Positions 5,686-25,640 of a stretch of 32,000 nucleotides of DNA are shown here, piece by piece; positions within the stretch are counted from its first letter, which is position 1, and the number at the start of each line of letters is the position of its first letter. The position numbers and the translations under genes were made by a program. The notes below the pieces were generated by a model. That model ran no database searches, was not told the origin of the DNA, and worked only from the letters and a program-made list of their open reading frames with translations. Source of the DNA: Prochlorococcus sp. MIT 0801 (GTDB taxonomy: Bacteria; Cyanobacteriota; Cyanobacteriia; PCC-6307; Cyanobiaceae). Location of the stretch: assembly GCF_000757865.1 (NCBI RefSeq), contig NZ_CP007754.1:990001-1022000 (forward strand), in the 5' to 3' direction.

Positions 5686-5862
5686 TCAATATGAATCAGC
5701 CCACTTACCTATAGCAAAATCAAGAAATCGATCAACATCATCATTAGGGCAGCCAGTCTTACTTTTTAATTCCTTACATGCGTCAGTAATTTTTTCAAAA
5801 CAAAGTTTCACATCCACATTTGCCTCGATTGCCTCAAACATTTGCTTATCAGTAAAGGTCAT
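5686..5862 (-). CDS. hypothetical 58-aa protein
   Basis: Hand-called ORF: MTFTDKQMFEAIEANVDVKLCFEKITDACKELKSKTGCPNDDVDRFLDFAIGKWADSY. Below the ORF-track length cutoff. Confidence 0.3.
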   Translation of the reverse strand: MTFTDKQMFEAIEANVDVKLCFEKITDACKELKSKTGCPNDDVDRFLDFAIGKWADSY

Positions 5863-5999
5863 ATTAAGAAGGGGGCAATTTAATAAAGAATATTTTCAAT
5901 GAGCTTTTTTGGCAATCTAGATAAATATAACTGAATCCAAGCTAGTAACAAAAAACAAGTACATGTTTAGATCGAAACTCAGAATAAGCAATCAAACAT

Positions 6000-6632
6000 T
6001 TATCTAGTTAAAGCCAAAGCCCAATTAGGAGAGGAAGAACTTACACCCAAAATATTCTTAGTCAAGGAGGAATTACATTTAGCGACAATCCCATTGGTAG
6101 GAAGATTAGAAAACAATTCATTATTGATCCATTGAGAATGCCATCTTTTAACCTGCATAGGATCATCAGTTCTTAGAGTTATAGGGACATCGAATCCCCA
6201 TTTTTGAAGTTGGGTCAAATCTGACAATTCATCACTATTTGAGCAAAAGATATGGAATGCTTTAAATAAAAGAGAGGTATTCTTATCAATTTGCGAGAAT
6301 GAGTTCGAAAGTAATTTCTCTAATGAAATCTTGGAATTAGCCGAAGGTGAGTATAAAACGCCCTCCAGCTCAACTTCAACTTTTAGAGAGTCATCAATAC
6401 TCAAAGGGATAGCATTGACATTCCTAATGTTTTCAATCATCACACGATCAACACGGGAATAGGCATCTACTAATTGGCCATATTTATATCGAAGGCCTAC
6501 TGCGAAGCCTACGATTTTGGGCTGCACAACCATGGTTGATCCCTCTGGTAACTTTGCCCACCAGCTAGAGAAACAATCCTTATCAAGTCCAAGTAATCTC
6601 ATATATATATCAATAGGAAGATGTAGAGCCAA
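6000..6632 (-). CDS. standalone NAD-dependent DNA ligase (LigA) adenylation-domain-like protein, degenerate motifs
   Basis: VVQPKIVGFAVGLRYKYGQLV aligns to LigA motif I (KxDG, here K-I-V-G). ELEGVLY aligns to EVRGEVF and NGIVAK to DGVVIK. KWGFDVP and PNWALAL also match LigA. No OB, Zn, HhH or BRCT regions. TTG at 6632; alternative ATG at 6602. Confidence 0.7.
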   Translation of the reverse strand: MALHLPIDIYMRLLGLDKDCFSSWWAKLPEGSTMVVQPKIVGFAVGLRYKYGQLVDAYSRVDRVMIENIRNVNAIPLSIDDSLKVEVELEGVLYSPSANSKISLEKLLSNSFSQIDKNTSLLFKAFHIFCSNSDELSDLTQLQKWGFDVPITLRTDDPMQVKRWHSQWINNELFSNLPTNGIVAKCNSSLTKNILGVSSSSPNWALALTR

Positions 6633-7324: not shown

Positions 7325-7576
7325 ATGCCAAGGGTAAAAAGAGAAAAGTATCCAGAAAAGGCCCCATGGGATTTAGGACCATTATCTGAGCATAAAAATC
7401 AAGAAAACTGGAGACTAGTAAGAGGATCTGAAATTGTCATTTTTGCTAGAAAAGGTGAAGACAACCACTTTTTCATCATGCAAAGAGACGATAAAGAGCC
7501 TATAGAGATTCTCGCATTTCAAGCAAGACTCACATATCAACAACTTTTAGATAAAGGTTTCAAACTTGAAGTTTGA
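7325..7576 (+). CDS. conserved hypothetical, tandem paralog 2
   Basis: ORF track; paralogous to 7003..7257. Confidence 0.6.
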   Translation: MPRVKREKYPEKAPWDLGPLSEHKNQENWRLVRGSEIVIFARKGEDNHFFIMQRDDKEPIEILAFQARLTYQQLLDKGFKLEV

Positions 7577-8540: not shown

Positions 8541-8666
8541 TTAAACGAAACCTGGAATAATCCAGCCTGTGAATCCGTAATTAACTACAGCTGCAAGAAG
8601 GCCCATCATCGCAAGACGACCATTCATTATTTCAGCTGTTTTCCAGTAGTTAGTTTCTTTGTTCAT
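8541..8666 (-). CDS. hli: high-light-inducible protein (HLIP), 41 aa
   Basis: MNKETNYWKTAEIMNGRLAMMGLLAAVVNYGFTGWIIPGFV carries the E-x2-NGR-x-AM-x-G chlorophyll-binding motif. The ORF-track N-terminal extension is read-through of the upstream gene. Confidence 0.9.
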   Translation of the reverse strand: MNKETNYWKTAEIMNGRLAMMGLLAAVVNYGFTGWIIPGFV

Positions 8667-8815
8667 TACACGAAACCTGGAATGATTTGTCCTGTTGTTG
8701 CGTAAGCACCAACTAAAGCAATGCATCCAAACAATGCTGCATAGCCATTAAGTCTTTCTGCAGTTACCTTTTCAGGATCAATGTTTCTACCGCTGCTGTT
8801 GTTTTGAGTAGTCAT
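8666..8815 (-). CDS. hli: high-light-inducible protein, 49 aa
   Basis: MTTQNNSSGRNIDPEKVTAERLNGYAALFGCIALVGAYATTGQIIPGFV. Its stop overlaps the next start as TAATG. Confidence 0.88.
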   Translation of the reverse strand: MTTQNNSSGRNIDPEKVTAERLNGYAALFGCIALVGAYATTGQIIPGFV

Positions 8816-8961
8816 TAGACAACACCTGGAATGATTTGACCTGTTGTTAGATATGCACCGATGAGTGCCCAGCATCCAACAAATGCTGCGTAGCCATTGA
8901 GTCTTTCAGCAATTACTTTGCCTTCTTCTACTCTTGGAGTTTCAGTAGTTTGGTTTTTCAT
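8815..8961 (-). CDS. hli: high-light-inducible protein, 48 aa
   Basis: Hand-called: MKNQTTETPRVEEGKVIAERLNGYAAFVGCWALIGAYLTTGQIIPGVV. TAATG overlaps at both ends. Confidence 0.85.
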   Translation of the reverse strand: MKNQTTETPRVEEGKVIAERLNGYAAFVGCWALIGAYLTTGQIIPGVV

Positions 8962-9080
8962 TAAACAACACCTGGGATAAGTTGACCGGTTGTTAGGTAG
9001 ATACCTGTTAGAAGAACGAATGCCATCATGGCTGGTCTGCCGATGCTTCTTTCTAGGATTGTTTTGTTAGATGGTTGCAT
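8961..9080 (-). CDS. hli: HLIP-like protein, 39 aa, degenerate motif
   Basis: Hand-called: MQPSNKTILERSIGRPAMMAFVLLTGIYLTTGQLIPGVV (E-x3-GR-x-AM). Confidence 0.7.
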   Translation of the reverse strand: MQPSNKTILERSIGRPAMMAFVLLTGIYLTTGQLIPGVV

Positions 9081-9100
9081 TGTTATTAGTAGTTATTGGT

Positions 9101-9208
9101 TTAGAAAATTCCAGGAATGATTTGACCTGTTGTTGCGTATGCACCGAAGGCAGCAACGAAGCCAAGCATTGCTGCCCAACCATTAAACTTTTCTGCTTCT
9201 GGAGTCAT
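9101..9208 (-). CDS. hli: high-light-inducible protein, 35 aa (first gene of the operon)
   Basis: Hand-called: MTPEAEKFNGWAAMLGFVAAFGAYATTGQIIPGIF. Confidence 0.85.
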   Translation of the reverse strand: MTPEAEKFNGWAAMLGFVAAFGAYATTGQIIPGIF

Positions 9209-9226
9209 GATGAAATCCGAGTTGTG

Positions 9227-9244
9227 TATGTGAATAAATGTAAA
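9227..9244 (-). promoter_or_regulatory. HLR1-like direct repeat (candidate RpaB site) upstream of the hli operon
   Basis: The minus strand reads TTTACATT-TA-TTCACATA. This is one mismatch from (G/T)TTACA(T/A)(T/A)-N2-repeat. It lies 18 nt upstream of the ATG at 9208. Confidence 0.45.
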
Positions 9245-9404
9245 TCAATTGTTAAACTACGTAAAGCCCCAAAAGTACGGCTTGCCTCATGAATGTGAAT
9301 TTCAGAAGCATCGGATACCAAAAACATTGTTTAAACAGTCACTTTGATTACATAAGTGGGAAATCAAACTAGAACAATATTCTCTTGTGAGAGGAAATGA
9401 CTAA

Positions 9405-10811: not shown

Positions 10812-11498
10812 ATGAGAGAAGAGAATGATGTATTAAATCATCTTATAAGGAATCTTGAGAGAATATCTCCAGAAGATTCTATCTTTAATTACAAATCTGG
10901 AAGCAAAGCCTTCGTATCATTAGGACAAGGAAATATTAGTGAATGGCTGGAGACATTTCTTCCAAATACAAGAATAATTGTAGAACCAAAAATCATTGGA
11001 TCAATCATTGGCATTCAATATATAAATGGAGAATTAAACAAGGTCATAAATAAAAATGTTCAAGACATTACAGAAAGCGTAAGTTCTCTAAAAATTATTC
11101 CTAAAAGCCTACCGATTAAAAACAGACTAGAAATACAAGGTATTCTTTACAACGATAAAAATTTATCAAGAAGAAAAAATGAACCTGAATTTATAGAAAT
11201 ACAAAATTGGCAATCACAGTCTAATAGACTTAAATTCTGCGCTTTTCAAATATATCAATGCAATATTAATCATTTTCAAACACTTCAAGAGTTAAAGCAT
11301 CTAAATTTTGAAATTCCTCAAACTCATTTTACAAACTTCATTTCAGATATCGAAATCTATCTTCAATGTTGGAGAGAGGGTAAGTTATTTACAAGCTATC
11401 CAACAAATGGACTAGTATTAAAAATCAATTCAAGAAAATTGCAGAAGTATCTTGGAGAAAATAACCTATCAATACCTTGCGCATACGCCATAAATTAA
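10812..11498 (+). CDS. second standalone LigA adenylation-domain-like protein, degenerate motifs
   Basis: VEPKIIGSIIGIQYINGEL (K-I-I-G), EIQGILY and NGLVLK. Paralogous to 6000..6632. Confidence 0.7.
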   Translation: MREENDVLNHLIRNLERISPEDSIFNYKSGSKAFVSLGQGNISEWLETFLPNTRIIVEPKIIGSIIGIQYINGELNKVINKNVQDITESVSSLKIIPKSLPIKNRLEIQGILYNDKNLSRRKNEPEFIEIQNWQSQSNRLKFCAFQIYQCNINHFQTLQELKHLNFEIPQTHFTNFISDIEIYLQCWREGKLFTSYPTNGLVLKINSRKLQKYLGENNLSIPCAYAIN

Positions 11499-13407: not shown

Positions 13408-13614
13408 TCAATCCCATTCAGCCGCAACGGCTCTTAAACCACTAGCAATGATTTCGTTGGGGCAATTAGTATCTTCCTTTAAGGCCTTAGCTGCAAGATG
13501 AACGTTCTCCCAAAATACTGACACTGCTCCAGTTTTTTGATCATCAGAGAATTTAAAGTCCTCAAAAGCTTTTGGCATTTTCCTATTTTTTTTAAGTTCT
13601 AGCAAAAAATTCAT
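13408..13614 (-). CDS. hypothetical protein
   Basis: ORF track; ATG start. Confidence 0.5.
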   Translation of the reverse strand: MNFLLELKKNRKMPKAFEDFKFSDDQKTGAVSVFWENVHLAAKALKEDTNCPNEIIASGLRAVAAEWD

Positions 13615-13763
13615 TCATCAACCTTAATCTTCACTGCTTCAATGTAATTATCTTTTTTATTATCTAAAAATAGTTTCCTTGTGATTAAGACTGCCATGGT
13701 CGTTAAAAATATAAAGCCAACACTTTGAATAAAATCTATATAGGTTGCCAAAAAATGAGTCAT
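13611..13763 (-). CDS. 50-aa membrane peptide coupled to the downstream gene
   Basis: Hand-called: MTHFLATYIDFIQSVGFIFLTTMAVLITRKLFLDNKKDNYIEAVKIKVDE. Its TGA overlaps the next ATG (ATGA). Confidence 0.4.
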   Translation of the reverse strand: MTHFLATYIDFIQSVGFIFLTTMAVLITRKLFLDNKKDNYIEAVKIKVDE

Positions 13764-13841
13764 TGGGAACTTGATTTTTTCAAATGTAGAGCAAAAAAAT
13801 CAAATGACAAATTCAACAACACAAAAGCAATAAAGAGTAAC

Positions 13842-13982
13842 TTAATGATCTGTTGAAGCCAAATAACTATCACCCAATAAGGTACCAGTACCAAGATCAA
13901 AAACATTATCAAGGTTAGATAGCAACTCTTTTAATTCTTCTCCGCTGATTCTTTTAATTTCTTGGTAAGTTTCTTTTGACAT
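13842..13982 (-). CDS. hypothetical 46-aa acidic peptide
   Basis: Hand-called: MSKETYQEIKRISGEELKELLSNLDNVFDLGTGTLLGDSYLASTDH. Confidence 0.3.
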   Translation of the reverse strand: MSKETYQEIKRISGEELKELLSNLDNVFDLGTGTLLGDSYLASTDH

Positions 13983-14169
13983 AGAAATAATAAAATCAGA
14001 TGCAAATTTAACCACTCCTAATCAGCTTCAGAGACCGTAAAGACCGATAGGGGTAATTGCCTTTTGGAATACTTCAATAAAAAGAAATTATGACAATAAT
14101 TAGTTTGCTTACATTAAGAATTCTAATCAATACCACAAAGAAAATAACGATACCTATGAGTAATTGATG

Positions 14170-14855
14170 TTAAGTAATTATTCCTACACGGCTGATAGTG
14201 GTTTGTTCTTATATTTTTTGAACTTCTCAGGACAACCTTCTTTTTATACTGAGCTTTAGAAGGTTGTTTCTTTGAATAAAAAACGTCAGTGCTCCTCCCC
14301 AGAAGCCAATCAACCGATGACCAGTGCAATTGATTGCCTGACGTACACATATCCTAGATTTTCCTTTTCATCAATAGTTCTGTAGGACCGTACGTCTTAG
14401 GCAGGGAAACCGTAGAAAGAATAAACCTCTTTTAATTAGACATTTAAAAAGGGCCCGAGGGGGCCCTTTTCCTTTACCGATTCTTTGGAAGCTTCTGGAT
14501 ATTGGTGGCCTGGGGCCAAGTGTCTAGTAGAAAGGCTTTTTTACTCCGTTAGGGCACCTAAACGATGCAGAGGAGGTTCGACTGAATTGACGCACCTAAA
14601 TCATTGATCCTTGTCGCATCAGACGAATAGCCCACTTATTCTTTGAGAATGTTGGAGCAGGAACCAGAATTCAGTTCGCTTCTCTTAAATACTCAGGTGG
14701 AGTGTCGACCATCAATGGTGCCTCTGAGCTCAACAAACGTATCTTTGCTCTATTCGCACCTCAACGCAATCAGCCTTAATGCCCATTGCATTTCCACTAC
14801 ACCTGATCAAAAATAGTAAGTTTGGGGTCTAGCTAAGATCTAATTAATAAATCAA
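14170..14855. repeat. 686-bp direct repeat, copy A (non-coding, GC-enriched)
   Basis: Block-by-block comparison with 24756..25441 (offset 10586) found one mismatch (14845 T vs 25431 C). Identity ends sharply on both sides. Confidence 0.95.
14446..14475. terminator. GC-clamp hairpin with A-run and T-run flanks (bidirectional terminator-like) inside repeat copy A
   Basis: AAAAA-GGGCCC-GAGG-GGGCCC-TTTTCCTTT. The minus strand reads GGGCCC-CCTC-GGGCCC-TTTTTAAAT. Confidence 0.6.
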
Positions 14856-14856
14856 T

Positions 14857-15201
14857 ATGTCGAGAGAACAAACAAGCAAACAAGATCAAATAAGCAATTT
14901 CGGTGAAATAGCTAAAGGATGTAGAACTGATCATCAAAAGATTGAATTTTTCGATTCAGCTAAGGAAGCATTTTTCACAGATTCAATTGAATCTACAAGC
15001 TCGGTTAATGAAGATATCCCTAAAGACTTAGACGACGGGTTTTACGTATACGCAAATATGAAAAAACTTAGCGAAACGGAGCTTGAAGAGTTGAAAAGTC
15101 TGCCATGGCAAGAATACCCAGAAAACTTTAAGATATTTTTATTCGATTTTTGCATCTTAAATGGTGATGCATATTCAAAATACTTCCCCAATTCAAAGTA
15201 G
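14857..15201 (+). CDS. hypothetical acidic protein
   Basis: ORF track; the ATG lies 1 nt after the end of repeat copy A. Confidence 0.55.
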   Translation: MSREQTSKQDQISNFGEIAKGCRTDHQKIEFFDSAKEAFFTDSIESTSSVNEDIPKDLDDGFYVYANMKKLSETELEELKSLPWQEYPENFKIFLFDFCILNGDAYSKYFPNSK

Positions 15202-15206
15202 TTTTA

Positions 15207-15353
15207 GTGATTTTCAGAGGTGTCAGCAAAGACAATCCTGAAAAAGCGATCGTTGTAGTTCAAGCTTATGAGGGTGTCTTAGAAAAACATATACAAGAGA
15301 ACATTGAAATATTTGAAAAAAATGGTGCAGTCCATGAGTACGGCAGAACCTAG
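15207..15353 (+). CDS. hypothetical 48-aa protein (GTG start)
   Basis: Hand-called: VIFRGVSKDNPEKAIVVVQAYEGVLEKHIQENIEIFEKNGAVHEYGRT. Confidence 0.25.
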   Translation: MIFRGVSKDNPEKAIVVVQAYEGVLEKHIQENIEIFEKNGAVHEYGRT

Positions 15354-15433
15354 TCTCTGGTCTTGAGGATCCAAATTGCTTAGGTATAAATAAAGAATCA
15401 ACTCAAAAGATTAGTCTCAATTAAATCTGAACA

Positions 15434-15703
15434 ATGATTAGAAATCTGTTTTTCTTAATTCTCGGAGCATTTAGCGGTCTTTGGTTTATATGGCCTCAAA
15501 TCATTACGACCAAAGGTTGGGAATGCACAAAAGATGTGATTGCATCTTCTAATGAAGATTTAACAGATATTGAATCATTAGTTGAATCCTTGCCAAACAG
15601 AATCAAATTAGGCTTGGCTGTTTCCCCAAAAACATTGCTAAAGAGAGAGAACCTTACTCGTATCGAGAAGCTCAGAATTGTTGGAGATGCTTGCTTTAGA
15701 TAA
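15434..15703 (+). CDS. hypothetical protein with N-terminal signal/anchor
   Basis: ORF track; LFFLILGAFSGLWFIW hydrophobic N-terminus. Confidence 0.5.
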   Translation: MIRNLFFLILGAFSGLWFIWPQIITTKGWECTKDVIASSNEDLTDIESLVESLPNRIKLGLAVSPKTLLKRENLTRIEKLRIVGDACFR

Positions 15704-15757
15704 TTTAAAACCACAAACGAAAATTATCATTATAAATATCAACAAAAAGTTGGCGTC

Positions 15758-16261
15758 TTAACTTATCAAAGCAATTGCTTCTTTTAATTCGTTCGCATGA
15801 TTGATCTCATCTTGAGCAATTTCACGTATCCTCTGATCGTTTGGATTAACTGTTAGATACTTTGCATAAGTTTCATACGCATGCTCTTCAATTTTTATAT
15901 TGATATCGTATGCATTTGATGGAGAGAGTAAGTAATAAAAAACCATTACCCAGTAATAGAAGAGCACTAAATGCCTTGCAAGAAATCGATCAACCCAATA
16001 TCTATTGCCGCTTCGTGATTCCATCTCTTCTAAATGCTCCGTCTCATTGATTGCTTGGTAAAAATGAGCCTTCATGAGCTTGTTGCTTAAAGGAGTCTTT
16101 AGGCCAAGCGACTCTTGTAAATGCAAAACTGATAAGAATGCAAAATAAGGTGCTCTAGCAATTACCTCAAGAACCCAAAAACGTTGAATCGGTCTACCTT
16201 CGTAGATCCGATCAAGAATGTTTACACTGAAATTTAAAACAAATGAATTAATACCTTTCAT
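15758..16261 (-). CDS. ptox: plastoquinol terminal oxidase (PTOX, alternative-oxidase-like di-iron protein)
   Basis: Di-iron carboxylate motifs: LEVIARAP, NETEHLEEM, EEHAYETY, DEINHANEL. Size 167 aa. Confidence 0.9.
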   Translation of the reverse strand: MKGINSFVLNFSVNILDRIYEGRPIQRFWVLEVIARAPYFAFLSVLHLQESLGLKTPLSNKLMKAHFYQAINETEHLEEMESRSGNRYWVDRFLARHLVLFYYWVMVFYYLLSPSNAYDINIKIEEHAYETYAKYLTVNPNDQRIREIAQDEINHANELKEAIALIS

Positions 16262-16379
16262 AATTCCTTAGCCCACTATTTAAGTATAAATACTTAACGC
16301 AACGATTTGAGTTGTAACTTATTTATTTAACTATCGATAGCAACTGGAGCAGAATGTGGAAGTAGGCCGAAGATTAAAT

Positions 16380-16556
16380 CTATCTTGCTCGGACAGGTTT
16401 GTAAGCAGGAATCATCTTTCCTCCACCGAAATCGTCATCATCGTCTGGAAGCGCTCTTGAGATTAGTTCTACGAGGACTAGAGCAGCCATAGGATAGAAA
16501 CACCATAAAACAGCTTTCCAGATGGGAAATGAGTCAACTAGCTGAAGCTCAGACAT
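16380..16556 (-). CDS. 58-aa TM protein with a poly-Asp-GGG-M tail (family member 1)
   Basis: Hand-called: MSELQLVDSFPIWKAVLWCFYPMAALVLVELISRALPDDDDDFGGGKMIPAYKPVRAR. Confidence 0.5.
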   Translation of the reverse strand: MSELQLVDSFPIWKAVLWCFYPMAALVLVELISRALPDDDDDFGGGKMIPAYKPVRAR

Positions 16557-16738
16557 GTATCAGAAAATTGTTTGAACAAACCTAACTGATCTAAAAATAT
16601 TTAGTGTTACGGTTAGCACGAAGTGAATGTTTATCTAATCGATCCTTCTGTAAAAAAATTACTTCAATCCGTCTAAGTTTTCCACAGCTTCAGAGTCACT
16701 AAATAACTCCAAGATCTAAATAAAAAGCAATTCCAATA

Positions 16739-16978
16739 AAAAAGACCCTAGGTATGGTGTCCTACGGGCCTGGGTGATGGGGATCTTATTTTTAACTGTT
16801 TTTCAAGCAAATTGCAACCCCTACCATATCTGGTGTTAGAAAGATTAAAAAAACAGAAAAAAAGACCCATATCTGGAATTATTAGCTTGCGTAATATGTA
16901 CACAGCGAGTAGTATTTTCGAATTACTGGGTGATGGGGATCTCTCAGTATCTACTCCCTCAAATTTGAGGGTTTTTTT
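16739..16978 (+). ncRNA. candidate small RNA locus (two units sharing AGACCC and a 17-mer)
   Basis: CTGGGTGATGGGGATCT occurs at 16770..16786 and 16926..16942, each preceded by A-run+AGACCC. Unit 1 ends in TTATTTTT and unit 2 in a strong terminator. The only ORF here reads through that terminator. Confidence 0.3.
16956..16978 (+). terminator. rho-independent terminator
   Basis: CCCTCAAA/TTTGAGGG stem followed by TTTTTTT. Confidence 0.65.
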
Positions 16979-17072
16979 ATGCCATGAATTTCTGCAGATA
17001 ATTTCTAAGATGGATTAAGGCAAAATTAGTGAAAAACTGCTCTGATCCTTATTTTTTTCCAAAATCGAGAAG

Positions 17073-17285
17073 ATGGAACAAGTAACTGATGCAATTGGTA
17101 ATCCCACAGCACTCTTAGTAGAGAGAATTTTTTGGTTAGGGTTAGGTGCATTTTTAGGACTGGCAATAATTACTTCTTTACTAAGAGGATTAAAAGAAAG
17201 TAAAAACAAAACGACACCAATTTCACCTGATCAATTAGAAAATCTTGCAAAAAAAGCGATCCAACAAAACAGTGATAGCAATTGA
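17073..17285 (+). CDS. hypothetical single-TM protein
   Basis: ORF track. Preferred over the antisense ORF 17015..17209 because of its clean TM helix plus charged tail. Confidence 0.5.
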   Translation: MEQVTDAIGNPTALLVERIFWLGLGAFLGLAIITSLLRGLKESKNKTTPISPDQLENLAKKAIQQNSDSN

Positions 17286-17575
17286 TATTGGTTATCAGAT
17301 ATTTTTATAGCCACAAACAAATTTACTTATGGTCGTTGGGGCGAGAACCGTACAATCAGCTACCACTGATTAGATGATGAGCATATATGCTTAATACATA
17401 TTCACAAAAACAATGAAATTAGTTCCTTACATATTCATGGCTGTTGCTATCTTCTCAGAAGTTTCAACAATTGCTACGACTCCTATTATCTAATTGAATC
17501 TCATTAATTGAGTATTCAGACCTAACGCGTTCGGGTGAATACCGACGTTAGATTGTATATAACTGATTTGTATTC

Positions 17576-17836
17576 ATGCTCAAAAAGATATTTAGGGCTG
17601 CTAGTTTTTTAGCTTTGTCTGTTTTTTTAACTTCGACAACTATTTTTTCAGGAATTAATCCTGCAGCAGCCGCTCAAATGGGTTCTGATATGAACGAAGA
17701 TAACTCTATGGGTATTGTGATCGAAGAGTCTAGTGATGCCTTGGATGGTTCGAAAACTAGTGCTGCCCCAGATCTTGGAGATGATCAAGCATTTCCTTTT
17801 ATTCCAGGTTTTGGTAAAAATTCCGGTAAAGACTGA
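17576..17836 (+). CDS. secreted acidic protein with a C-terminal FPF-x-PG motif (family member 1)
   Basis: Signal peptide ending AAAAQ, a Met/Asp/Glu/Ser-rich middle, then DLGDDQAFPFIPGFGKNSGKD. Confidence 0.6.
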   Translation: MLKKIFRAASFLALSVFLTSTTIFSGINPAAAAQMGSDMNEDNSMGIVIEESSDALDGSKTSAAPDLGDDQAFPFIPGFGKNSGKD

Positions 17837-18233
17837 TTATCTTTTTGTTGAAAAGTATTGATTGATAATAAATTACTAATTTTTTCAAAAGCTAGAAAAA
17901 ATCCACAGTTATAAGAGCTAATTAGCTAAACCATTTTCATGGAAAAATGGGAATCAAAAATAATCATATTTGTTATGTTTGCAGTCCTTGCAATTGGGTC
18001 AATCGCGCCATTGATCAGGATGATCAGTGATCGTATTTCTTAAGATTGAATTTGATTGGACAGGCTGAGATCATTGGAGTAATTATTTCTAACATGATTA
18101 CTTTTGGCATTTTTAGCTGATTAATTTTTATTTTGCAAAAAATGAAAAAAATGGATTAAATGCTCAAATGGAACAAAAAAAAATCTAGAGAAAGATCTCT
18201 AGATTTATATGAAGATTGATTTGTTAAAGCTAT

Positions 18234-18530
18234 TTAAAATATGCCAGGAATAATTTGTCCAGTAGTGATATAAGCGCCTAGTAAAGCAATCATTCCGATC
18301 ATTGCCCAACGGCCATTGGTCTTTTCCGCTTCTTCAGGATAGCTGGAATAGTTTTCAACTAATTGAGTTTGTACTTGGGTAGCAAACATGTTTTGCTTGC
18401 CATATTCAGTAATGATCTGGTTAGAAGCAGAACTGTAAGCAGGGATTCCTGTTGGATCAACAGATTGTCCTTCTGATTGATTATCAGTTGGATCTATTGA
18501 TTGATCAGAAACTGGGTTACTAGAAGTCAT
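18234..18530 (-). CDS. hli: high-light-inducible protein with a long N-terminal extension, 98 aa
   Basis: From ATG at 18530. The C-terminus EEAEKTNGRWAMIGMIALLGAYITTGQIIPGIF is a canonical HLIP. The N-terminus contains DQSIDPTDNQSEGQSVDPTG. Confidence 0.85.
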   Translation of the reverse strand: MTSSNPVSDQSIDPTDNQSEGQSVDPTGIPAYSSASNQIITEYGKQNMFATQVQTQLVENYSSYPEEAEKTNGRWAMIGMIALLGAYITTGQIIPGIF

Positions 18531-18538
18531 ATAAGAAC

Positions 18539-18646
18539 CTAAAAAATGCCTGGAATAATTTGACCAGTAGTTGCATAAGCACCGAAAGCAGCAATAAAGC
18601 CGATCATTGCCATCCAACCATTAAACTTTTCTGCTTCTGGAGTCAC
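18539..18646 (-). CDS. hli: high-light-inducible protein, 35 aa, GTG start
   Basis: (GTG)TPEAEKFNGWMAMIGFIAAFGAYATTGQIIPGIF. No in-frame ATG would keep the E-x2-NG motif. Paralog of 9101..9208. Confidence 0.75.
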   Translation of the reverse strand: MTPEAEKFNGWMAMIGFIAAFGAYATTGQIIPGIF

Positions 18647-18672
18647 GAGATTAAACTCAAATAATGCGCATG

Positions 18673-18701
18673 AATGTAAAGGAAAAGTAAAGGAATGTAA
18701 A
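18673..18701 (-). promoter_or_regulatory. HLR1-like triple direct repeat upstream of the hli pair
   Basis: The minus strand reads TTTACATT-CC-TTTACTTT-TCC-TTTACATT, ending 26 nt before the GTG at 18646. Confidence 0.55.
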
Positions 18702-18811
18702 GGGGTCACCCGTACACAGCAAAAGTTATCAGGGGTATTAGGTGAAGCAATATTTTTTATCCACGTTCTAAATAACAATTCCACTAACTTTGTTGAACTT
18801 AATTCAAATAG

Positions 18812-18988
18812 ATGGATTTAATACCAGGTGTAGTTCTTTTCTTTGGAGCCATTGGAACTGTGGCTTTACTTGGTTGGGATACTTTCCAAAATCGTAAGCC
18901 AATAACTAAAGCTGAAATGCAGCAGTCTCGTGGAACTAGAGCTGCTAAGCCACAACAAAAGAGAAGATGGTTATTTAACAGAGAATAA
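18812..18988 (+). CDS. 58-aa single-TM protein with a basic tail
   Basis: Hand-called: MDLIPGVVLFFGAIGTVALLGWDTFQNRKPITKAEMQQSRGTRAAKPQQKRRWLFNRE. The ORF-track minus ORF 18799..19005 is its antisense shadow. Confidence 0.45.
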   Translation: MDLIPGVVLFFGAIGTVALLGWDTFQNRKPITKAEMQQSRGTRAAKPQQKRRWLFNRE

Positions 18989-18990
18989 TT

Positions 18991-19167
18991 ATGGGTGAAA
19001 TTCAAACATACGCTTCAAACTCAGGAGATTTTAATTTCCTTTTCGTTCTAATCATTGTTGGGACTTATCTTCTTTATGAGGTTGGAAAGGCAATAATGGA
19101 CAACAACGATGATGATGACATGGATGGAGGAATGACGATGCGTGTAGCAGATGGAGCACAGGCCTGA
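18991..19167 (+). CDS. 58-aa TM protein with a poly-Asp-GG-M tail (family member 2)
   Basis: Hand-called: MGEIQTYASNSGDFNFLFVLIIVGTYLLYEVGKAIMDNNDDDDMDGGMTMRVADGAQA. Its ATG lies 2 nt after the preceding stop. Confidence 0.5.
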   Translation: MGEIQTYASNSGDFNFLFVLIIVGTYLLYEVGKAIMDNNDDDDMDGGMTMRVADGAQA

Positions 19168-19638
19168 ATTGACTACCAAAATAATATGTACTTAATGACT
19201 ACATAAACATGTCGTCTCTAAAAAGGTTTAAGGGTGAATTGAATATATAATTAGTCATCTATTTAATTAAAAATTTTGAGCGAAGAAAATATCAAAAGAA
19301 AAATAGATGCTTTATTAAAAGAACTTCAGGAGAAAACAGGAGTTTCGGATGAGGAGATGGACGAATTTAAAAAAATTATGGAACTAGCAGATTTTTCACA
19401 AGACCAAGAATAATTTAGGTATAAGTCGGGATGAATGAAGGTTTAGCGAGATGCGAGTTTTGACCAAATAAGGAGTACCAACACGTTAAGCAATGCATAT
19501 CCAACAGCAATTTGAAGTTGGTAAAAATAACCAACAATCGAAGAGGATCCCAAAATGATCAAACTAGTAATAAAAATATCTCTTGAAAAATTCACCTAAA
19601 AATATCAAGCACTATAAATATTCAGATTGAAAATGAAA

Positions 19639-19797
19639 TCATGAAAGTCTTATTTGATTTTCAATCGAATAAGCATTGCTTGTGCAGGCCTCATCACCTG
19701 TAACTTGAGAAACAGCAATAACCAGAAGACTTAGAGAACCAACCGCTAGAGAAATTGTTCTAATAGCACTTGCTTTCTTAGAGATTTTCTTGCTCAT
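19639..19797 (-). CDS. hypothetical single-TM protein
   Basis: ORF track 19639..19839. The internal ATG at 19797 gives MSKKISKKASAIRTISLAVGSLSLLVIAV. Confidence 0.4.
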   Translation of the reverse strand: MSKKISKKASAIRTISLAVGSLSLLVIAVSQVTGDEACTSNAYSIENQIRLS

Positions 19798-19946
19798 ATC
19801 AAAAAAAATTGATGTAATAAGAATATGATTACTATCCAAGCATAAAGAGTATCCATTGATACCTGCTAGAAATAATTACCTAAAAATTATTAGAACAATT
19901 CTGAATAGAGCTAAATCAATTGAAAACCAGATTTAAATTGATTGCT

Positions 19947-20276
19947 TTATTTACAAGCTTGCGATGGTTGTTGCGAACTTTCTTTTAACAGTTCAATCCA
20001 ATCTTGCAAAGAATTTAATGAGTCAATATTCAATTGGTAATAAACCCATCTACCAGTTTGCCTATCGGTAATCAAACCTGCATCTTTTAAAACTTTTAAA
20101 TGAAAAGATATTTTCGATTGCGCCAATCCAATTTCATTAATCAAATCACAAACACATCGTTCTCCTCCTGAAAGAGACTCAATGATTTGCAATCGCAATG
20201 GATCAGATAAAGCTTTTAGCAATTTCCTGGCCACTGCATTTTCAAGAACTACTTCGCTCTTTGTCGCTGTGGCCAT
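19947..20276 (-). CDS. arsR: ArsR/SmtB-family metalloregulator
   Basis: Winged-helix core LRLQIIESLSGGERCVCDLINEIGLAQSKISFHLKVLKDAGLI, with the CVC metalloid-binding motif. ATG at 20276. Confidence 0.9.
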   Translation of the reverse strand: MATATKSEVVLENAVARKLLKALSDPLRLQIIESLSGGERCVCDLINEIGLAQSKISFHLKVLKDAGLITDRQTGRWVYYQLNIDSLNSLQDWIELLKESSQQPSQACK

Positions 20277-20347
20277 CACAGAAGAAAAAATATAATCACA
20301 TGATAAAACAAACCGCAGAAAAGGCTTGCATCGATAAACCTCTATAC

Positions 20348-20365
20348 ATCAATATAAATTGATAT
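20348..20365. promoter_or_regulatory. palindromic operator-like motif in the arsR/gap divergent intergenic region
   Basis: ATCAAT-ATAA-ATTGAT-AT, a 6-4-6 inverted repeat. A further ATTGAT lies at 20384..20389 inside TATATTGATT. Confidence 0.5.
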
Positions 20366-20415
20366 GAGGAATCTTATCCTTATATTGATTCACTCCTCTA
20401 ACTCAATTACAGGTT

Positions 20416-21441
20416 ATGCGAATCGGTATTAATGGTTTCGGTCGAATAGGACGACTTGTTCTAAGAGCGCTCTGGGGTAGAGAAAATATCGAGATTACAC
20501 ATATCAACGATCCATTGGGTGATGCAAAGGGAGCTGCGCATTTACTTGAATTTGATTCAGTACATGGTCGTTGGAACAAAGCAATAAGCAACGACCAAAA
20601 CAACCTGAGTATTGAAGGTCACCCGATATCTTTTGCAAAGGAAAGTGATTTCACAAAAGTTCCATGGGATAAGACAGGTATAGAGCTAATTCTCGAATGT
20701 TCAGGAAAATTCAAAACCCCTCAAACATTAAATCCTTACTTCGATACTCTTGGGATGAAAAGAGTTGTCGTTGCATGTCCAGTAAAAGGAGAAATCCAGG
20801 GAGAGGATGCTCTAAATATCGTCTACGGTATTAATCATGATTTATATGAGCCCAATAAACATCGCTTAGTAACAGCTGCATCCTGCACGACTAATTGCTT
20901 GGCTCCCGTTGTGAAAGTTGTTAATCAAGCTTTTGGTATCAAGCATGGAAGCATCACAACACACCATGACCTAACAAATACACAGGTAATCGTTGATTCA
21001 TTTAAATCAGATTTAAGAAGAGCAAGGAGCGGATCACAAAGCTTAATTCCAACAACAACAGGATCAGCAAAAGCGATAGGGATGATATTCCCTGAATTAC
21101 AAGGTAAATTAAATGGTCATGCAGTTCGAGTTCCTCTCCTCAATGGATCTTTAACTGATGCTGTATTTGAATTAGAAAAAGAGGTCACGCAAGAAGAAGT
21201 CAATCATGTGTTCAAAGAAGCTTCAGAAGGAGAACTAAAAGGAATACTTGGTTACGAAGAAAAACCACTTGTATCAATCGATTATGTCAATGACTCGAGA
21301 AGTTCAATTATTGATGCGCCCTCAACCATGGTGATCAACAAAACTCAACTGAAAGTCTATATTTGGTATGACAATGAATGGGGGTATAGCTGTCGAATGG
21401 CTGATCTCGTATCACATGTAATAAAGCTAGAAAAAGAATAA
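20416..21441 (+). CDS. gap: glyceraldehyde-3-phosphate dehydrogenase-like protein (ars-associated GAPDH)
   Basis: [12 protein letters not shown]-binding N-terminus and the catalytic [10 protein letters not shown] motif. 341 aa, followed 10 nt later by arsJ. Confidence 0.92.
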
Positions 21442-21451
21442 AAATAAAAAC

Positions 21452-22714
21452 ATGCGATTAACGGCATTGCAACAATATGGAATCGTAACGACCAACTATT
21501 GGGCATTCACACTGACAGATGGTGCTCTAAGAATGCTAGTGATTTTTCACTTTCATAGCCTTGGATATACAACATTAGAAATTGCATTCTTATTCCTTTT
21601 TTATGAGTTCTTTGGCGTCATCACTAATCTCTATGGAGGTTGGATAGGAGCAAGATATGGATTACGTCTAACACTGTGGGTAGGAACTCTTTTACAAATC
21701 GGCGCCCTATTGATGTTGATACCCGTTTCAAGTGGTTGGTCGAAACTTTTGAGTGTCATTTATGTCATGGTTGCTCAAGCGATTAGTGGCATAGCAAAAG
21801 ATCTCAATAAGATGAGTGCTAAAAGTGCCATCAAAACTGTCGTTCCAGGCTCATCAGAAGAAGATGGTGGAAATAATCAATTATTTAAATGGGTAGCCAT
21901 CTTAACTGGTTCAAAAAATGCACTCAAAGGAGTTGGCTTCTTTCTTGGTGGACTTTTGCTTACAAGTTTTGGATTTAATAAAGCAGTTGAATTAATGGCT
22001 ATCGGTTTAGGTCTGTCATTTCTAATGACATTAATTTTGCCTGGAGATATTGGAAAGATGAAAAACAAACCAATCTTTAAAGACTTATTTTCTAAATCTC
22101 AAGGGATCAATGTCCTCTCTTTTGCACGCTTTTTTCTCTTTGGGGCAAGAGACGTATGGTTCGTCGTTGCACTACCTGTTTTTCTTGAAACGTATCTAAA
22201 TTGGAATTTTTCTGAGATTGGAGCTTTTCTAGGATTGTGGGTTATTGGTTATGGTTTTATTCAAGCGTTTGCGCCGTCTTTAAGAAATTTATGGGGAAAT
22301 AAAACAAGCCCAGGAGTTTCTTCTGTTCAATTCTGGAGCGCTGCGTTAACTGCAATTCCAGCGCTAATAGCAATAGCACTATGGCGACAAAGCAATCCAG
22401 AAACAGCAATTACAGCTGGATTGATATTATTTGGGTTCATATTTGCAATGAACTCATCAATACATTCATATATGGTTCTTGCTTATACGGACAAGGAAAA
22501 CGTGAGTCTAAACGTCGGCTTCTATTACATGGCAAATGCGGCAGGGAGACTGATTGGTACTCTCCTATCAGGAGTTTTATTCATGATTGGAGCTAATGCC
22601 TCTATAGGAATGCAACTATGTTTATGGTGCTCAAGCCTATTTGTATTTATCTCATTGTTGACTAGTTTACGACTACCTCCAGTATCAAATACAAAAGCTA
22701 TAAAAAATTCCTAA
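21452..22714 (+). CDS. arsJ: ArsJ-like MFS permease (organoarsenical efflux)
   Basis: 420 aa, about 11-12 hydrophobic segments. The position directly after an ars-linked GAPDH and divergent from arsR fits the ArsJ arrangement. Confidence 0.8.
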   Translation: MRLTALQQYGIVTTNYWAFTLTDGALRMLVIFHFHSLGYTTLEIAFLFLFYEFFGVITNLYGGWIGARYGLRLTLWVGTLLQIGALLMLIPVSSGWSKLLSVIYVMVAQAISGIAKDLNKMSAKSAIKTVVPGSSEEDGGNNQLFKWVAILTGSKNALKGVGFFLGGLLLTSFGFNKAVELMAIGLGLSFLMTLILPGDIGKMKNKPIFKDLFSKSQGINVLSFARFFLFGARDVWFVVALPVFLETYLNWNFSEIGAFLGLWVIGYGFIQAFAPSLRNLWGNKTSPGVSSVQFWSAALTAIPALIAIALWRQSNPETAITAGLILFGFIFAMNSSIHSYMVLAYTDKENVSLNVGFYYMANAAGRLIGTLLSGVLFMIGANASIGMQLCLWCSSLFVFISLLTSLRLPPVSNTKAIKNS

Positions 22715-22755
22715 GAGCGTCAATAAAAAAAATTAAATATCAAGGGAAAGAAGGA

Positions 22756-22935
22756 CTACTGAACCTCTGATTCTCTGTCATATTCAAGTCCAACTTCATT
22801 CATCCATGCTGCTTTCGTTTTACAGTTTTTACCATGCTCGGCTAGATGTAATCCCTCAATCGAAATAAATAAAACTAGTAGTGAAACTGGAACCCACCAA
22901 ATGGGTGATCCAACTATTTCCTTCCAATTATTCAT
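22756..22935 (-). CDS. hypothetical 59-aa single-TM protein
   Basis: Hand-called: MNNWKEIVGSPIWWVPVSLLVLFISIEGLHLAEHGKNCKTKAAWMNEVGLEYDRESEVQ. Confidence 0.35.
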   Translation of the reverse strand: MNNWKEIVGSPIWWVPVSLLVLFISIEGLHLAEHGKNCKTKAAWMNEVGLEYDRESEVQ

Positions 22936-23007
22936 TGAATCTTTTTTTTCATATTAAAGATTTTTTTCAGCTTAAGTTAGGAAGTGACTGGCTAGCAAAA
23001 AAGAAAT

Positions 23008-23037
23008 TAAAAAGGAGGCTATTGCCTCCTTTTTAAT
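23008..23037. terminator. bidirectional rho-independent terminator after pstS
   Basis: AAAAAGGAGGC-TATT-GCCTCCTTTTTAA. The stem is 23013..23019 / 23024..23030. Confidence 0.65.
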
Positions 23038-23052
23038 TTATAAGGAATAAAT

Positions 23053-24024
23053 TCACTTACCAATACGCTTTACAGCAGCGCGAGACTTGGAAAGAATATC
23101 ACCTTTTAGAGGAACAAAGCCAAGAGAAGGAGCCTTAGCCTGGGCTTTATCACTAAGTAGGTAGTTAAGTGAATCTCTAATGGCATCAGTGTTTCTACCA
23201 TTACCAGTTTCGTAAGCAAGAATCCATGTAAGGGTTGCGATTGGGTATGCACCCTTGGCCTTAGGGTTAGGGTTATTACCGGCTAGATTTTTATCTAGTT
23301 GTATTCCATTAAGAGCAATAGCACCAGCCTCAGTAGTTGGCTGTAAAAACTCTCCTGATAAATTTTGGAGAGCGGCTGCTTTGATTTCACCTCTAATATA
23401 TGACTGGTTTACATAACCAATTGCACCAGGAGTGTTACGAATAACGCCAGCAACACCAGCATTACCTTTACCACCAACACCAGCAGGCCAGGCGACAGAT
23501 TTACCTGTTCCTAGAGTCCATGTCTTAGAGAAAGCCTGCATGGAATTTGTAAAAGCCTTCGTAGTGCCTGAACCATCAGAACGATGAGCCCAAGTTAGTT
23601 TTCCTTCAGGGCAACCAACCTCTTTCCAGTTTGAAATTTTACCCATAGCAACACGAACAGCTTGCTCTTGAGTAAGTTTAAGATCGCAATCGTAGTTATA
23701 ACCAAAAGCAATAGTGCCACCAACCATTGGGATTTGAACTAATCCCCGCGTAACTTTTGCAATATCTGTTGCTTTCATCGGATCATCAGACGCACCGAAA
23801 TTAACGGTTTCATCAATGAAAGCTTTACGGCCAGAACCTGAACCAACAGCTTGATAGTTAACACGAGGTCCACGCTCTTTAGCTAAGTCAGAGAACCATC
23901 GAGTGTAGATTTTAGCGGGAAAAGAGGCTCCAGCTCCGCTGAGTCGAGCACCCGCAAAGGCACTTCCACCTGAGCCAAGAATAATTAAAGAGGAGAGGAC
24001 AAGACTCTTCTTAGCAAAGCTCAT
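23053..24024 (-). CDS. pstS: phosphate ABC transporter periplasmic phosphate-binding protein PstS
   Basis: GAGASFPAKIY, AVGSGSG and SDGSGTT motifs. I chose the ATG at 24024 (MSFAKKSLVLSSLIILGSGGSAFA signal peptide). The ORF stays open to 24078. Confidence 0.92.
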   Translation of the reverse strand: MSFAKKSLVLSSLIILGSGGSAFAGARLSGAGASFPAKIYTRWFSDLAKERGPRVNYQAVGSGSGRKAFIDETVNFGASDDPMKATDIAKVTRGLVQIPMVGGTIAFGYNYDCDLKLTQEQAVRVAMGKISNWKEVGCPEGKLTWAHRSDGSGTTKAFTNSMQAFSKTWTLGTGKSVAWPAGVGGKGNAGVAGVIRNTPGAIGYVNQSYIRGEIKAAALQNLSGEFLQPTTEAGAIALNGIQLDKNLAGNNPNPKAKGAYPIATLTWILAYETGNGRNTDAIRDSLNYLLSDKAQAKAPSLGFVPLKGDILSKSRAAVKRIGK

Positions 24025-24080
24025 CAAAGGTCTGCGACGTAAAAGCAATGAAAGCATAGGACGTGAAGGCTCTGACATTG

Positions 24081-24116
24081 ATCAATATTTATTGATATAA
24101 TCAATATAGCTTGATA
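24081..24116. promoter_or_regulatory. array of four alternating ATCAAT/ATTGAT half-sites upstream of pstS
   Basis: ATCAAT-ATTT-ATTGAT-ATA-ATCAAT-ATAGC-TTGAT(A). Half-site starts are spaced 10, 9 and 10 bp apart. The first 18 nt match 20348..20365 at 16 of 18 positions. Confidence 0.5.
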
Positions 24117-24497
24117 CAGGGCTTACGGCAAAAAAACTAATTCAAAATAAACATATCTGTTTGATGGAGCGAAGCGGTATATTTATGAGCAATATTAAGG
24201 CTGATGCTTGGATGAAAACCAATCATTAGATCAATCAAGCATTTAATAAGAAGTTGAAAAACAAAGTAAAATATCTTCTAATAATTCTAGTCTTAATGAT
24301 CGGCACATCTATATCTATTAGCCAATACAAAAACACATATCCAGATCCTAGTGAGAGAAAAGATTTATCTGTTAAAGGAATCTTTCTAGATTAAAAATGT
24401 TATGTTTACAAAAATATAAAACATAAATAAGCTTTAAGTGTATAAATTTAGACTAAAATAAATAAAGAGTGAAGGCTTGAAGAAAAGAGGAAACTAA

Positions 24498-24728
24498 ATG
24501 AGATGGCCACCGAATGCAGCTTGGACCTCAGCCGTAAAAAGAGAAGGTTATCGACATTTTGAAGTTAAAAGCTATGGAGGCAAAAAAGATGAACGGTGGG
24601 TAGAACTATTTCCAGTTAACAACAACGAAATTCTTATAAGAGTTCCATGGTCGGAATTAAAAACATATTCAAAGTGGACGAGTGGATGGCTTCAGTTGCC
24701 AAAAGATGACGATTGCGATGGCAACTAA
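24498..24728 (+). CDS. conserved hypothetical protein
   Basis: ORF track; ATG start. It ends 27 nt before repeat copy B. Confidence 0.6.
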   Translation: MRWPPNAAWTSAVKREGYRHFEVKSYGGKKDERWVELFPVNNNEILIRVPWSELKTYSKWTSGWLQLPKDDDCDGN

Positions 24729-24755
24729 TCTTTAGAGAAAATAAAAAACAGATAT

Positions 24756-25441
24756 TTAAGTAATTATTCCTACACGGCTGATAGTGGTTTGTTCTTATAT
24801 TTTTTGAACTTCTCAGGACAACCTTCTTTTTATACTGAGCTTTAGAAGGTTGTTTCTTTGAATAAAAAACGTCAGTGCTCCTCCCCAGAAGCCAATCAAC
24901 CGATGACCAGTGCAATTGATTGCCTGACGTACACATATCCTAGATTTTCCTTTTCATCAATAGTTCTGTAGGACCGTACGTCTTAGGCAGGGAAACCGTA
25001 GAAAGAATAAACCTCTTTTAATTAGACATTTAAAAAGGGCCCGAGGGGGCCCTTTTCCTTTACCGATTCTTTGGAAGCTTCTGGATATTGGTGGCCTGGG
25101 GCCAAGTGTCTAGTAGAAAGGCTTTTTTACTCCGTTAGGGCACCTAAACGATGCAGAGGAGGTTCGACTGAATTGACGCACCTAAATCATTGATCCTTGT
25201 CGCATCAGACGAATAGCCCACTTATTCTTTGAGAATGTTGGAGCAGGAACCAGAATTCAGTTCGCTTCTCTTAAATACTCAGGTGGAGTGTCGACCATCA
25301 ATGGTGCCTCTGAGCTCAACAAACGTATCTTTGCTCTATTCGCACCTCAACGCAATCAGCCTTAATGCCCATTGCATTTCCACTACACCTGATCAAAAAT
25401 AGTAAGTTTGGGGTCTAGCTAAGATCTAATCAATAAATCAA
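24756..25441. repeat. 686-bp direct repeat, copy B
   Basis: Same sequence as 14170..14855 (685/686). The GC-clamp hairpin lies at 25037..25052. Confidence 0.95.
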
Positions 25442-25445
25442 AAAC

Positions 25446-25640
25446 ATGAATCAGTCTCCAGAGAAAGAGAAGGGAATGAGCTTTATTAAAAAAGCTGGTA
25501 AATGGGCTCCATTAGTTGGAGGAGCATGGATTGTTCTGAATATTGTTGTTCCATTAGCTCTACTTCGTATTCCTGCAGTCCAAAAATACTTAGTAGTACT
25601 TGAAGACAAGCTCCCATTTGATATTCCAGGTATTGGTTAG
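25446..25640 (+). CDS. hypothetical 64-aa membrane protein
   Basis: ORF track; the ATG lies 4 nt after the end of repeat copy B. Confidence 0.55.
   Translation: MNQSPEKEKGMSFIKKAGKWAPLVGGAWIVLNIVVPLALLRIPAVQKYLVVLEDKLPFDIPGIG

Follow-up and report, generated by a model that had tools for sequence, protein, structure and literature searches.

The closest described counterpart of the element considered here, a 686-bp non-coding unit that occurs twice in a 32,000-nt stretch of the genome of Prochlorococcus sp. MIT 0801 (contig NZ_CP007754.1, positions 990,001 to 1,022,000; hereafter the window), is the RNA Yfr103 (Voigt et al. 2014 ISME J; PMC5069720; PMC7368042). In some picocyanobacterial populations, no other non-ribosomal transcript is reported to be as abundant as Yfr103. 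Its paralogues measure 290-328 nt, and the seven found in Synechococcus CC9605 are independent, hugely abundant transcripts that make up 55% of the mdRNA-seq reads of that strain, with homologues in SS120, NATL1A/2A, and MIT9303/9313 (PMC5069720); the reference sequence of MIT9313 has 304 nt. The Yfr103 fold is described as strongly conserved, positions -29 to -58 relative to the transcription start site hold an imperfect palindrome that is likewise conserved, and the function of the RNA has been termed "enigmatic" (PMC5069720). For NATL2A, supplementary tables give the name "yfr103" to a minus-strand locus of 400 nt (988876-989276; 26,040 reads) and the name "antisense of yfr103" to 962538-962761 (1,473 reads) and 962780-963244, the latter two with a combined span of 706 bp (PMC7368042). 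The NATL2A loci at 962780 and 988876 are grouped in that study as homologues present in low-light clades LLI, LLII-III, and LLIV and not in high-light (HL) Prochlorococcus (Table S4 values: HL 0, LLI 1, LLII-III 1, LLIV 1), and the contig at 962538 is LLI-only, with no Rfam model that fits (PMC7368042).

Other described systems resemble the locus in part. Abundant RNAs of the 6S type (Yfr7) share with it a high abundance on published data, a conserved fold of several helices with invariant unpaired blocks, and a gene of their own that ends in a terminator, but the conserved core of the element has no match to them in sequence or model. Tycheposons and tRNA-linked islands (bioRxiv 10.1101/2020.12.28.424599) likewise comprise a variable nutrient-stress island bounded by a repeated RNA-gene region; however, the repeats in the present locus are 686-bp non-coding RNA modules rather than partial tRNA or tmRNA sites of ~40 nt, and there is no integrase, such that the mechanism would be homologous rather than site-specific recombination. 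An island attached at a tRNA or tmRNA site in the manner of a tycheposon was rejected, since the window contains no tRNA or tmRNA and its larger ORFs include no integrase.

The 686-bp unit is a whole intergenic module of low-light clade I (LLI) Prochlorococcus, and the locus is probably best described as this module, carrying a Yfr103 gene on the minus strand, placed twice as direct repeats around a 9.9-kb island. Base-by-base comparison of positions 14170-14855 with 24756-25441 (offset 10586) gives 685 identical positions out of 686, the sole difference being a T at 14845 in copy 1 and a C at 25431 in copy 2, and the match drops off at once beyond either end of the repeat; the pair was also recovered by an automated repeat search of the window. 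Copy 1 lies between small minus-strand genes of the left flank (13408-13763) and a plus-strand gene for a protein of 114 amino acids (aa; 14857..15201), a junction also present in L073-L076 and L029, and copy 2 lies between a gene of the DUF2389 family (24498-24728) and the plus-strand gene for a 64-aa membrane protein (25446..25640). The right end of the repeat falls 1-4 nt ahead of the next plus-strand start codon in both copies (1 nt for the 114-aa gene and 4 nt for the 64-aa gene); the module extends to the start of the next plus-strand gene, whatever its identity. A preliminary description of this DNA, made from its letters and a list of open reading frames (ORFs), had reported the two-copy repeat with abrupt ends, an enrichment in GC, four hairpins, and only small internal ORFs, all of which direct comparison bears out: the GC content is 41.7% for the element against 34.2% for the window (previously put at roughly 30%) and reaches 0.52 in single 60-nt lines, each of the four hairpins is present where it had been placed, and no ORF within the element exceeds 57 aa. 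The single ORF of more than 60 aa that touches the element (14123-14350, minus strand), dismissed earlier as spurious, is indeed the only one and extends outside it.

Conservation across more distant genomes is confined to a core of ~290 nt on the minus strand (from ~25316 to 25030 and from 14730 to 14444). Distant loci (L045, L051, L054, L050, L064, MIT 1307 (L107), L109, and several metagenome contigs) share only element positions ~277-630, at identities of 54-85%, and core homologues are present in LLI-type genomes, in MIT 1307, and in many non-LLI low-light single-cell genomes, within a sample drawn without HL, LLIV, or Synechococcus genomes. In the other low-light clades, MIT 1307 included, the distant homologues of the core are 54-70% identical to it. 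Judged from the aligned homologues, this core is a structured RNA of the minus strand with covarying helices. The RNAalifold consensus of 24 sequences in minus orientation is a long-range multi-helix fold, which single-sequence folding of the window reproduces, and comprises 79 pairs with 92.9% of cells paired (31-48% in controls with slid partners). Covariation, which the preliminary description had proposed to test, was counted pair by pair on this structure: 14 pairs are changed on both sides, a number reached in 3 of 500 shuffles, and the covariation score of 0.143 is reached in none of 500 (0.098 in shuffles). Compensatory changes include C-G to U-A in helix P1 (GAAGC/GCUUC) and, in UUCG/CGAA, U-A to G-C in eight sequences and G-C to A-U in five. 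The conserved fold also contains invariant unpaired blocks. A 4-bp GGUC/GAUC pairing with the 3' arm of the terminator, proposed by RNAalifold, was rejected because it is too short and reflects a single clade split.

The strand is indicated by the helices and by the 3' end. Predicted helices contain 147 G-U cells versus 38 A-C cells, and the same helices are canonical in 92.9% of cells on the minus strand versus 87.0% on the plus strand. The GGGCCC/GGGCCC stem at 25032..25056 (14446-14470 in copy 1), which is followed by a run of T on the minus strand, changes to CCGACC/GGTCGG or CTGACC/GGTCAG in other clades, and the plus-strand A-run ahead of the hairpin, equivalent to a T-run after it on the minus strand, is conserved; the covarying stem together with the conserved T-run identifies a Rho-independent terminator of a minus-strand transcript. 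The earlier proposal of a structured RNA ending at the GGGCCC hairpin therefore stands, although not on the strand on which it had been read, and the two arms of the local TGGCC/GGCCA hairpin are more plausibly parts of long-range helices.

With its 3' end taken from the terminator and its 5' end from a -10-like box, the predicted Yfr103-like RNA extends over 25030..25316 in copy 2 and, with identical sequence, over 14444..14730 in copy 1, both on the minus strand. The candidate -10 box TACGTT (25322..25327, minus strand; 14736-14741 in copy 1) was read from the alignment, in which other clades have TAATCT, TAATGT, or TCATTT, and a transcription start placed 6-8 nt past this hexamer would give the RNA a length of 276-288 nt (324 nt in L050); an alternative start may lie near 25393. 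Upstream is the imperfect palindrome GCAATGGGCATTAAGGCTGATTGC (25352..25375; 14766-14789 in copy 1), a candidate transcription-factor site whose GCATTAAGRC core is invariant in all clades. This 24-nt palindrome is located 37-60 nt upstream of the start so placed, and its comparison with the published Yfr103 palindrome is one of position only. The RNA gene would thus possess its own upstream palindrome, -10-like box, and Rho-independent terminator. A simple promoter and terminator scan returned one weak promoter and missed the terminator.

Apart from a micro-ORF of 8-13 codons, the core is non-coding as far as its substitution pattern indicates, as had been claimed from the single sequence. It contains no conserved ORF, the longest ORFs being kept neither in frame nor in position, and its substitutions have no 3-nt periodicity (variability by codon phase 0.172, 0.198, and 0.199). 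Among the searches suggested with that claim, Rfam 15 at the gathering threshold matches neither the window nor any of six homologous loci, and the sub-threshold matches of an E-value search are only generic terminator look-alikes at the terminator hairpin; no match in sequence or model was obtained to 6S, RNase P, tmRNA, or signal recognition particle RNA. BLAST against a phage collection gave no match, and neither did a pattern scan of a viral contig collection. In agreement with the earlier reading, ARAGORN detects no tRNA or tmRNA in the window, the ends of the element match at only 14 of 40 positions and hence form no terminal inverted repeats, and no flanking bases are shared that could represent a target-site duplication. 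An insertion sequence or miniature inverted-repeat transposable element, named at the time as a finding that would overturn the proposal, was rejected, as was any other transposon, for want of terminal inverted repeats, target-site duplication, and ORF.

The core is very probably Yfr103, an assignment drawn from the coordinates, distribution, size, and copy number published for that RNA. The NATL2A annotations (PMC7368042) mirror the element in having an LLI-only left part, a gap at the position of the terminator, a shared core, two loci on one strand, and a span of 706 bp, which argues that the two are the same. Shared characters further include a structured RNA of ~290-330 nt that has a promoter and a terminator of its own (here predicted at 276-288 nt, with the 5' end placed from the -10-like box), an imperfect palindrome at a comparable distance upstream, a conserved secondary structure (in sequences that are related and with many invariant pairs), the lack of an Rfam model, an occurrence in low-light Prochlorococcus (LLI, LLII-III, and LLIV and not HL for the NATL2A loci; LLI-type and other low-light genomes for the core), and more than one copy per genome, as seen in the window, QCHS01000003, AG-436-C14, and AG-315-C08; the two NATL2A loci lie on the same strand, one of them beside an LLI-only segment. 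Of the "unknown structured RNA" of the preliminary description, the structure is upheld and the novelty very probably is not (PMC5069720, PMC7368042). The RNA itself has very probably been described already, and nothing reported here overturns current views; the advances are modest and sharpen an existing open question on Yfr103, adding a covariation-supported fold and a strand assignment for its low-light Prochlorococcus branch. The micro-ORF preceded by a Shine-Dalgarno (SD) sequence and the island-flanking arrangement may be new, as the Yfr103 literature examined makes no mention of either or of the concerted evolution described below. A literature search with conserved 12-17-mers returned only unrelated papers. 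Probes for the NATL2A small RNAs Yfr106-108 had no match in the window by eye, nor did the part of the Yfr108 probe that was searched, and these candidates were rejected.

The duplication is genuine and is not restricted to this genome. The T at 14845 is private to copy 1 of this genome and is carried by a contig from an independent assembly (Logan contig L001), whose first 41 nt are the end of copy 1 and whose sequence then runs on into the 114-aa gene; this linkage excludes an assembly artefact, about which the preliminary description had cautioned. The two-copy layout recurs in at least three other LLI-type genomes (QCHS01000003, AG-436-C14, and AG-315-C08). A look-up of the 68-aa left-flank protein found copy 1 in L073 (a contig of 1.86 Mb), L074, L075, and L076, with L074 representing the same single-cell contig on which copy 2 was recognized as L008. 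A look-up of the 64-aa protein yielded ten LLI-type genomes, all with the element between the DUF2389 and 64-aa genes at 94-98% identity, and a scan of a genome collection added ~25 further genomes with the element at 85-97%. Overall, the copy-2 position is kept at 91-98% identity in ~30 LLI-type genomes, compared with 88-96% for the coding flanks. The earlier suggestion that the element is conserved is reinforced by the finding that it exceeds the adjoining coding DNA in identity (97.7% versus 89.9% in L004 and 95.0% versus 88.8% in L007). Many single-cell and metagenome contigs break off within the element, as is expected of a repeat.

Within a genome, the two copies reach an identity of 99.8% or more (one difference over 686 positions in the window and in the single-cell genome QCHS01000003, one over 594 positions in AG-436-C14, and none over 626 positions in AG-315-C08), whereas copies from different genomes are 84-98% identical, differing by 2-16%. 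Even AG-315-C08, the more distant of the two-copy genomes, has copies without a single difference. This combination of high identity within and lower identity between genomes points to concerted evolution, and we infer that gene conversion keeps the two copies virtually identical. At the right edge of copy 1 in L074 (~8752-8760), there are ~8 extra bases (AAAAATCA) that resemble the flank of copy 2, indicating that the edge of the homogenized tract differs between genomes.

The island between the copies (14856..24755) is variable, and mapping five segments of the window onto all loci distinguishes four types of junction around the element. The first joins the left flank, element, and 114-aa gene (copy 1), and the second joins DUF2389, element, and 64-aa gene (copy 2). 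In the third, the element lies between the left flank and the 64-aa gene and the island is absent, as seen in two divergent single-cell genomes (L030, 4147-6554; L034, 8906-10854). The fourth is the reciprocal, with the element between DUF2389 and the 114-aa gene, and was found on a 1.7-kb metagenome contig (L099, 158-1700). Island size also differs (4.5 kb in L064 and 7.6 kb in L029), as do the genes upstream of DUF2389 in L005 and L011 and the island content in L007. A metagenome contig of 6.2 kb (L087) carries the end of one element at 1-71 and the start of another at 5734-6224, a short island variant that runs from repeat to repeat. Recombination between the repeats is presumably behind the presence and absence of the island: 686 bp of homology would allow it to be deleted, or integrated in the manner of Campbell, by homologous recombination, and no integrase is recognized by Pfam among the larger ORFs of the window. 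The direct repeats thus suggest a simple, integrase-free route for the gain and loss of this phosphate/PTOX island, and, if this is true, the LLI module may double as 686-bp homology arms for excision and re-acquisition. The "portable regulatory cassette" considered in the preliminary description is supported to the limited extent that two direct-repeat copies of the whole intergenic module enclose a variable island.

Near the 5' end of the RNA lies the micro-ORF MVDTPPEYLREAN (25257..25298, read on the minus strand from 25298 to 25257; 14671-14712 in copy 1, from 14712 to 14671). It has 8-13 codons that begin M-[V/I]-D-T-P-P-E-Y, the first eight residues being near-invariant, with an ATG in 36 of 37 distinct homologues and an SD-like AGAGG or GGAGG 6-9 nt upstream. 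Synonymous variants are many (GTC/GTT/GTA, GAC/GAT, CCA/CCG, CCT/CCA, TAT/TAC, AGA/CGA, GCG/GCA, and AAC/AAT), although the sample does not suffice for a firm test and constraint at the level of the RNA could yield the same pattern. CUCC in the Thr-Pro codons is the pairing partner of the SD-like bases, and helix P1 takes its 5' strand from the final codons of the ORF. Pro-Pro-Glu is known from work in E. coli as an EF-P-dependent motif, and translation might slow there. It is a doubtful proposal that Yfr103 is not purely non-coding and that translation of the micro-ORF could switch its fold; if true, this would apply to an RNA that ranks among the most abundant in marine picocyanobacteria. 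The conserved, SD-preceded micro-ORF offers a concrete experimental handle on Yfr103.

The surroundings of the RNA differ between clades. In non-LLI clades, it lies between a gene for a 61-aa IF2_N-like protein and a co-oriented gene pair, p56-p130, a linkage that holds in eight non-LLI loci and is broken in LLI, L057, and L108. L057 and MIT 1300 (L108) retain the promoter motifs and p56-p130 without the RNA, and LLI genomes retain the RNA and have no p56-p130 nearby. Since each occurs alone, the RNA is a separable gene. In the non-LLI clades, a perfect TGTA-N8-TACA box, similar to an NtcA site, stands directly ahead of the -10-like hexamer; it was observed between the GCATTAAGRC palindrome and the RNA in L045 (~7440-7460), L050, L051, L054, L107, and L109. 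The conserved promoter motifs were also seen in L057 (~4290-4350) and L108 (~3350-3400), and in the latter, MIT 1300, where the RNA is missing, the box centres a perfect inverted repeat of 21 bp. Activation by NtcA through this box was rejected because no -10 box lies at the distance expected for an activator site at -41.5, and the box is described here as an operator-like motif. When L051 (10001-12019) is compared with the window (13408-25640), the distance between the RNA and the 64-aa gene is ~1.5-4.5 kb in the non-LLI arrangement, an interval that contains p56, p130, and a pair of small Cys-rich genes, and the relative orientation of the two is different, which indicates a rearrangement of this locus between clades.

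Several observations weigh against the description of the locus as a duplicated Yfr103 module around a recombining island. The identification with Yfr103 is one by published attributes rather than by alignment, and the two NATL2A loci are ~26 kb apart compared with 10.6 kb here, a difference in spacing that nonetheless fits a variable island; likewise, Yfr2 was not found here at the NATL2A spacing, consistent with islands that differ. The RNA-seq contigs of NATL2A (370-400 nt) exceed the 287-nt model, in which the start was placed from the -10-like box. By thermodynamic z-score, the minus strand (-1.22) has no advantage over the plus strand (-2.27), and most helices are near-invariant, such that the covariation depends on a few clade-level changes among related sequences. 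Finally, junction types three and four come from single-cell and metagenome assemblies, in which a 686-bp repeat can cause mis-joins.

Against this background, the same conserved core could be viewed as a cis-acting leader or attenuator, either riboswitch-like or dependent on the micro-ORF, in which folding or translation of the 5' micro-ORF would set the choice between termination and read-through into downstream genes. The arrangement in non-LLI genomes lends itself to this explanation, as the RNA is always located between the palindrome with its TGTA-N8-TACA box and the co-oriented p56-p130, with the terminator intervening, and the SD-preceded micro-ORF with its conserved Pro-Pro-Glu overlaps the closing helix P1 with its 3' end. 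Like these loci, leader-peptide attenuators and riboswitch leaders combine a structured 5' region and a short ORF behind an SD sequence with an intrinsic terminator and downstream genes in the same orientation. In contrast to such leaders, however, the terminator is located ~230 nt past the micro-ORF with a large conserved domain between them, the alignment contains no anti-terminator pairing that is conserved across clades, and the RNA and p56-p130 are separable, occurring one without the other in L057/L108 and in LLI. The Synechococcus paralogues of Yfr103, moreover, are reported as independent, abundant transcripts (PMC5069720). A leader function is quite unlikely, and we tentatively suggest that the RNA would act as a stand-alone, abundant trans-acting structural or protein-binding RNA.

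The element could instead matter mainly as DNA, a recombination or attachment module at the borders of a mobile island whose conservation is a by-product of homogenization, and the direct repeats around a variable island, the four junction types (including single-copy and reciprocal forms), the many contigs that break within the element, and the within-genome identity of at least 99.8% would all be expected if so. Gene conversion within a genome cannot, however, account for conservation between genomes above that of the coding flanks, nor for conservation of the core where it is single-copy and away from the island, and the locus lacks an integrase, tRNA, terminal inverted repeat, and target-site duplication; a role mainly as DNA is therefore very improbable. 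Near-perfect copies 10.6 kb apart can also have the appearance of a collapsed or mis-resolved repeat, and a non-coding element can be a degraded gene, insertion sequence, or mobile-element remnant of the miniature inverted-repeat kind. Neither is credible to any real degree, given that an independent assembly joins the copy-1 T variant to the 114-aa gene, that the same layout exists in a 1.86-Mb contig and several single-cell genomes, and that the element has no ORF, periodicity, terminal inverted repeat, target-site duplication, or phage match.

Besides the core, the module contains a left part of ~275 nt (24756-25030 and 14170-14444) that is LLI-specific and has two further hairpins. The hairpin CGTCAG...CTGACG, which encloses CAATCAA/TTGATTG (24860..24929; 14274-14343 in copy 1), is provisionally assigned to the minus strand, on which TTTTTT follows it, and has a compensatory C-G to T-A change in L003. 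The plus-strand hairpin ACAACCTTCT/AGAAGGTTGT (24818..24853; 14232-14267 in copy 1) is followed by TTTCTTT, is invariant in LLI, and is probably the terminator of the DUF2389 gene. One of the hairpins in the left part exposes CUCCUCCCC when read on the plus strand and GGGGAGGAG when read on the minus. In the NATL2A tables, a plus-strand contig of 223 nt with 1,473 reads is found at the position of this left part (PMC7368042).

The 9.9-kb island encodes, in addition to the 114-aa ORF at its left end, a DUF3764 protein, PTOX/AOX (15758-16261, minus strand), hli genes, an ArsR-type regulator (19947-20279, minus strand), gap1 (20416-21441), a transporter of the MFS family (21452-22714), pstS (23053-24078, minus strand), and DUF2389, with the genes for which coordinates are given here, DUF2389, and the hli-like genes identified by Pfam, whose matches assign the window to a Prochlorococcus-type island. 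A family of 109-nt direct repeats (five copies, 62-84% identity) overlaps small ORFs at 8541-9292 and 18234-18784; these ORFs have weak Chloroa_b-bind matches and represent two hli clusters, one outside and one inside the island. In the flank of the island, two ORFs of 210 aa (6000-6632, minus strand) and 228 aa (10812-11498, plus strand) match only the adenylation domain of NAD-dependent DNA ligase and may be paralogous ligase fragments.

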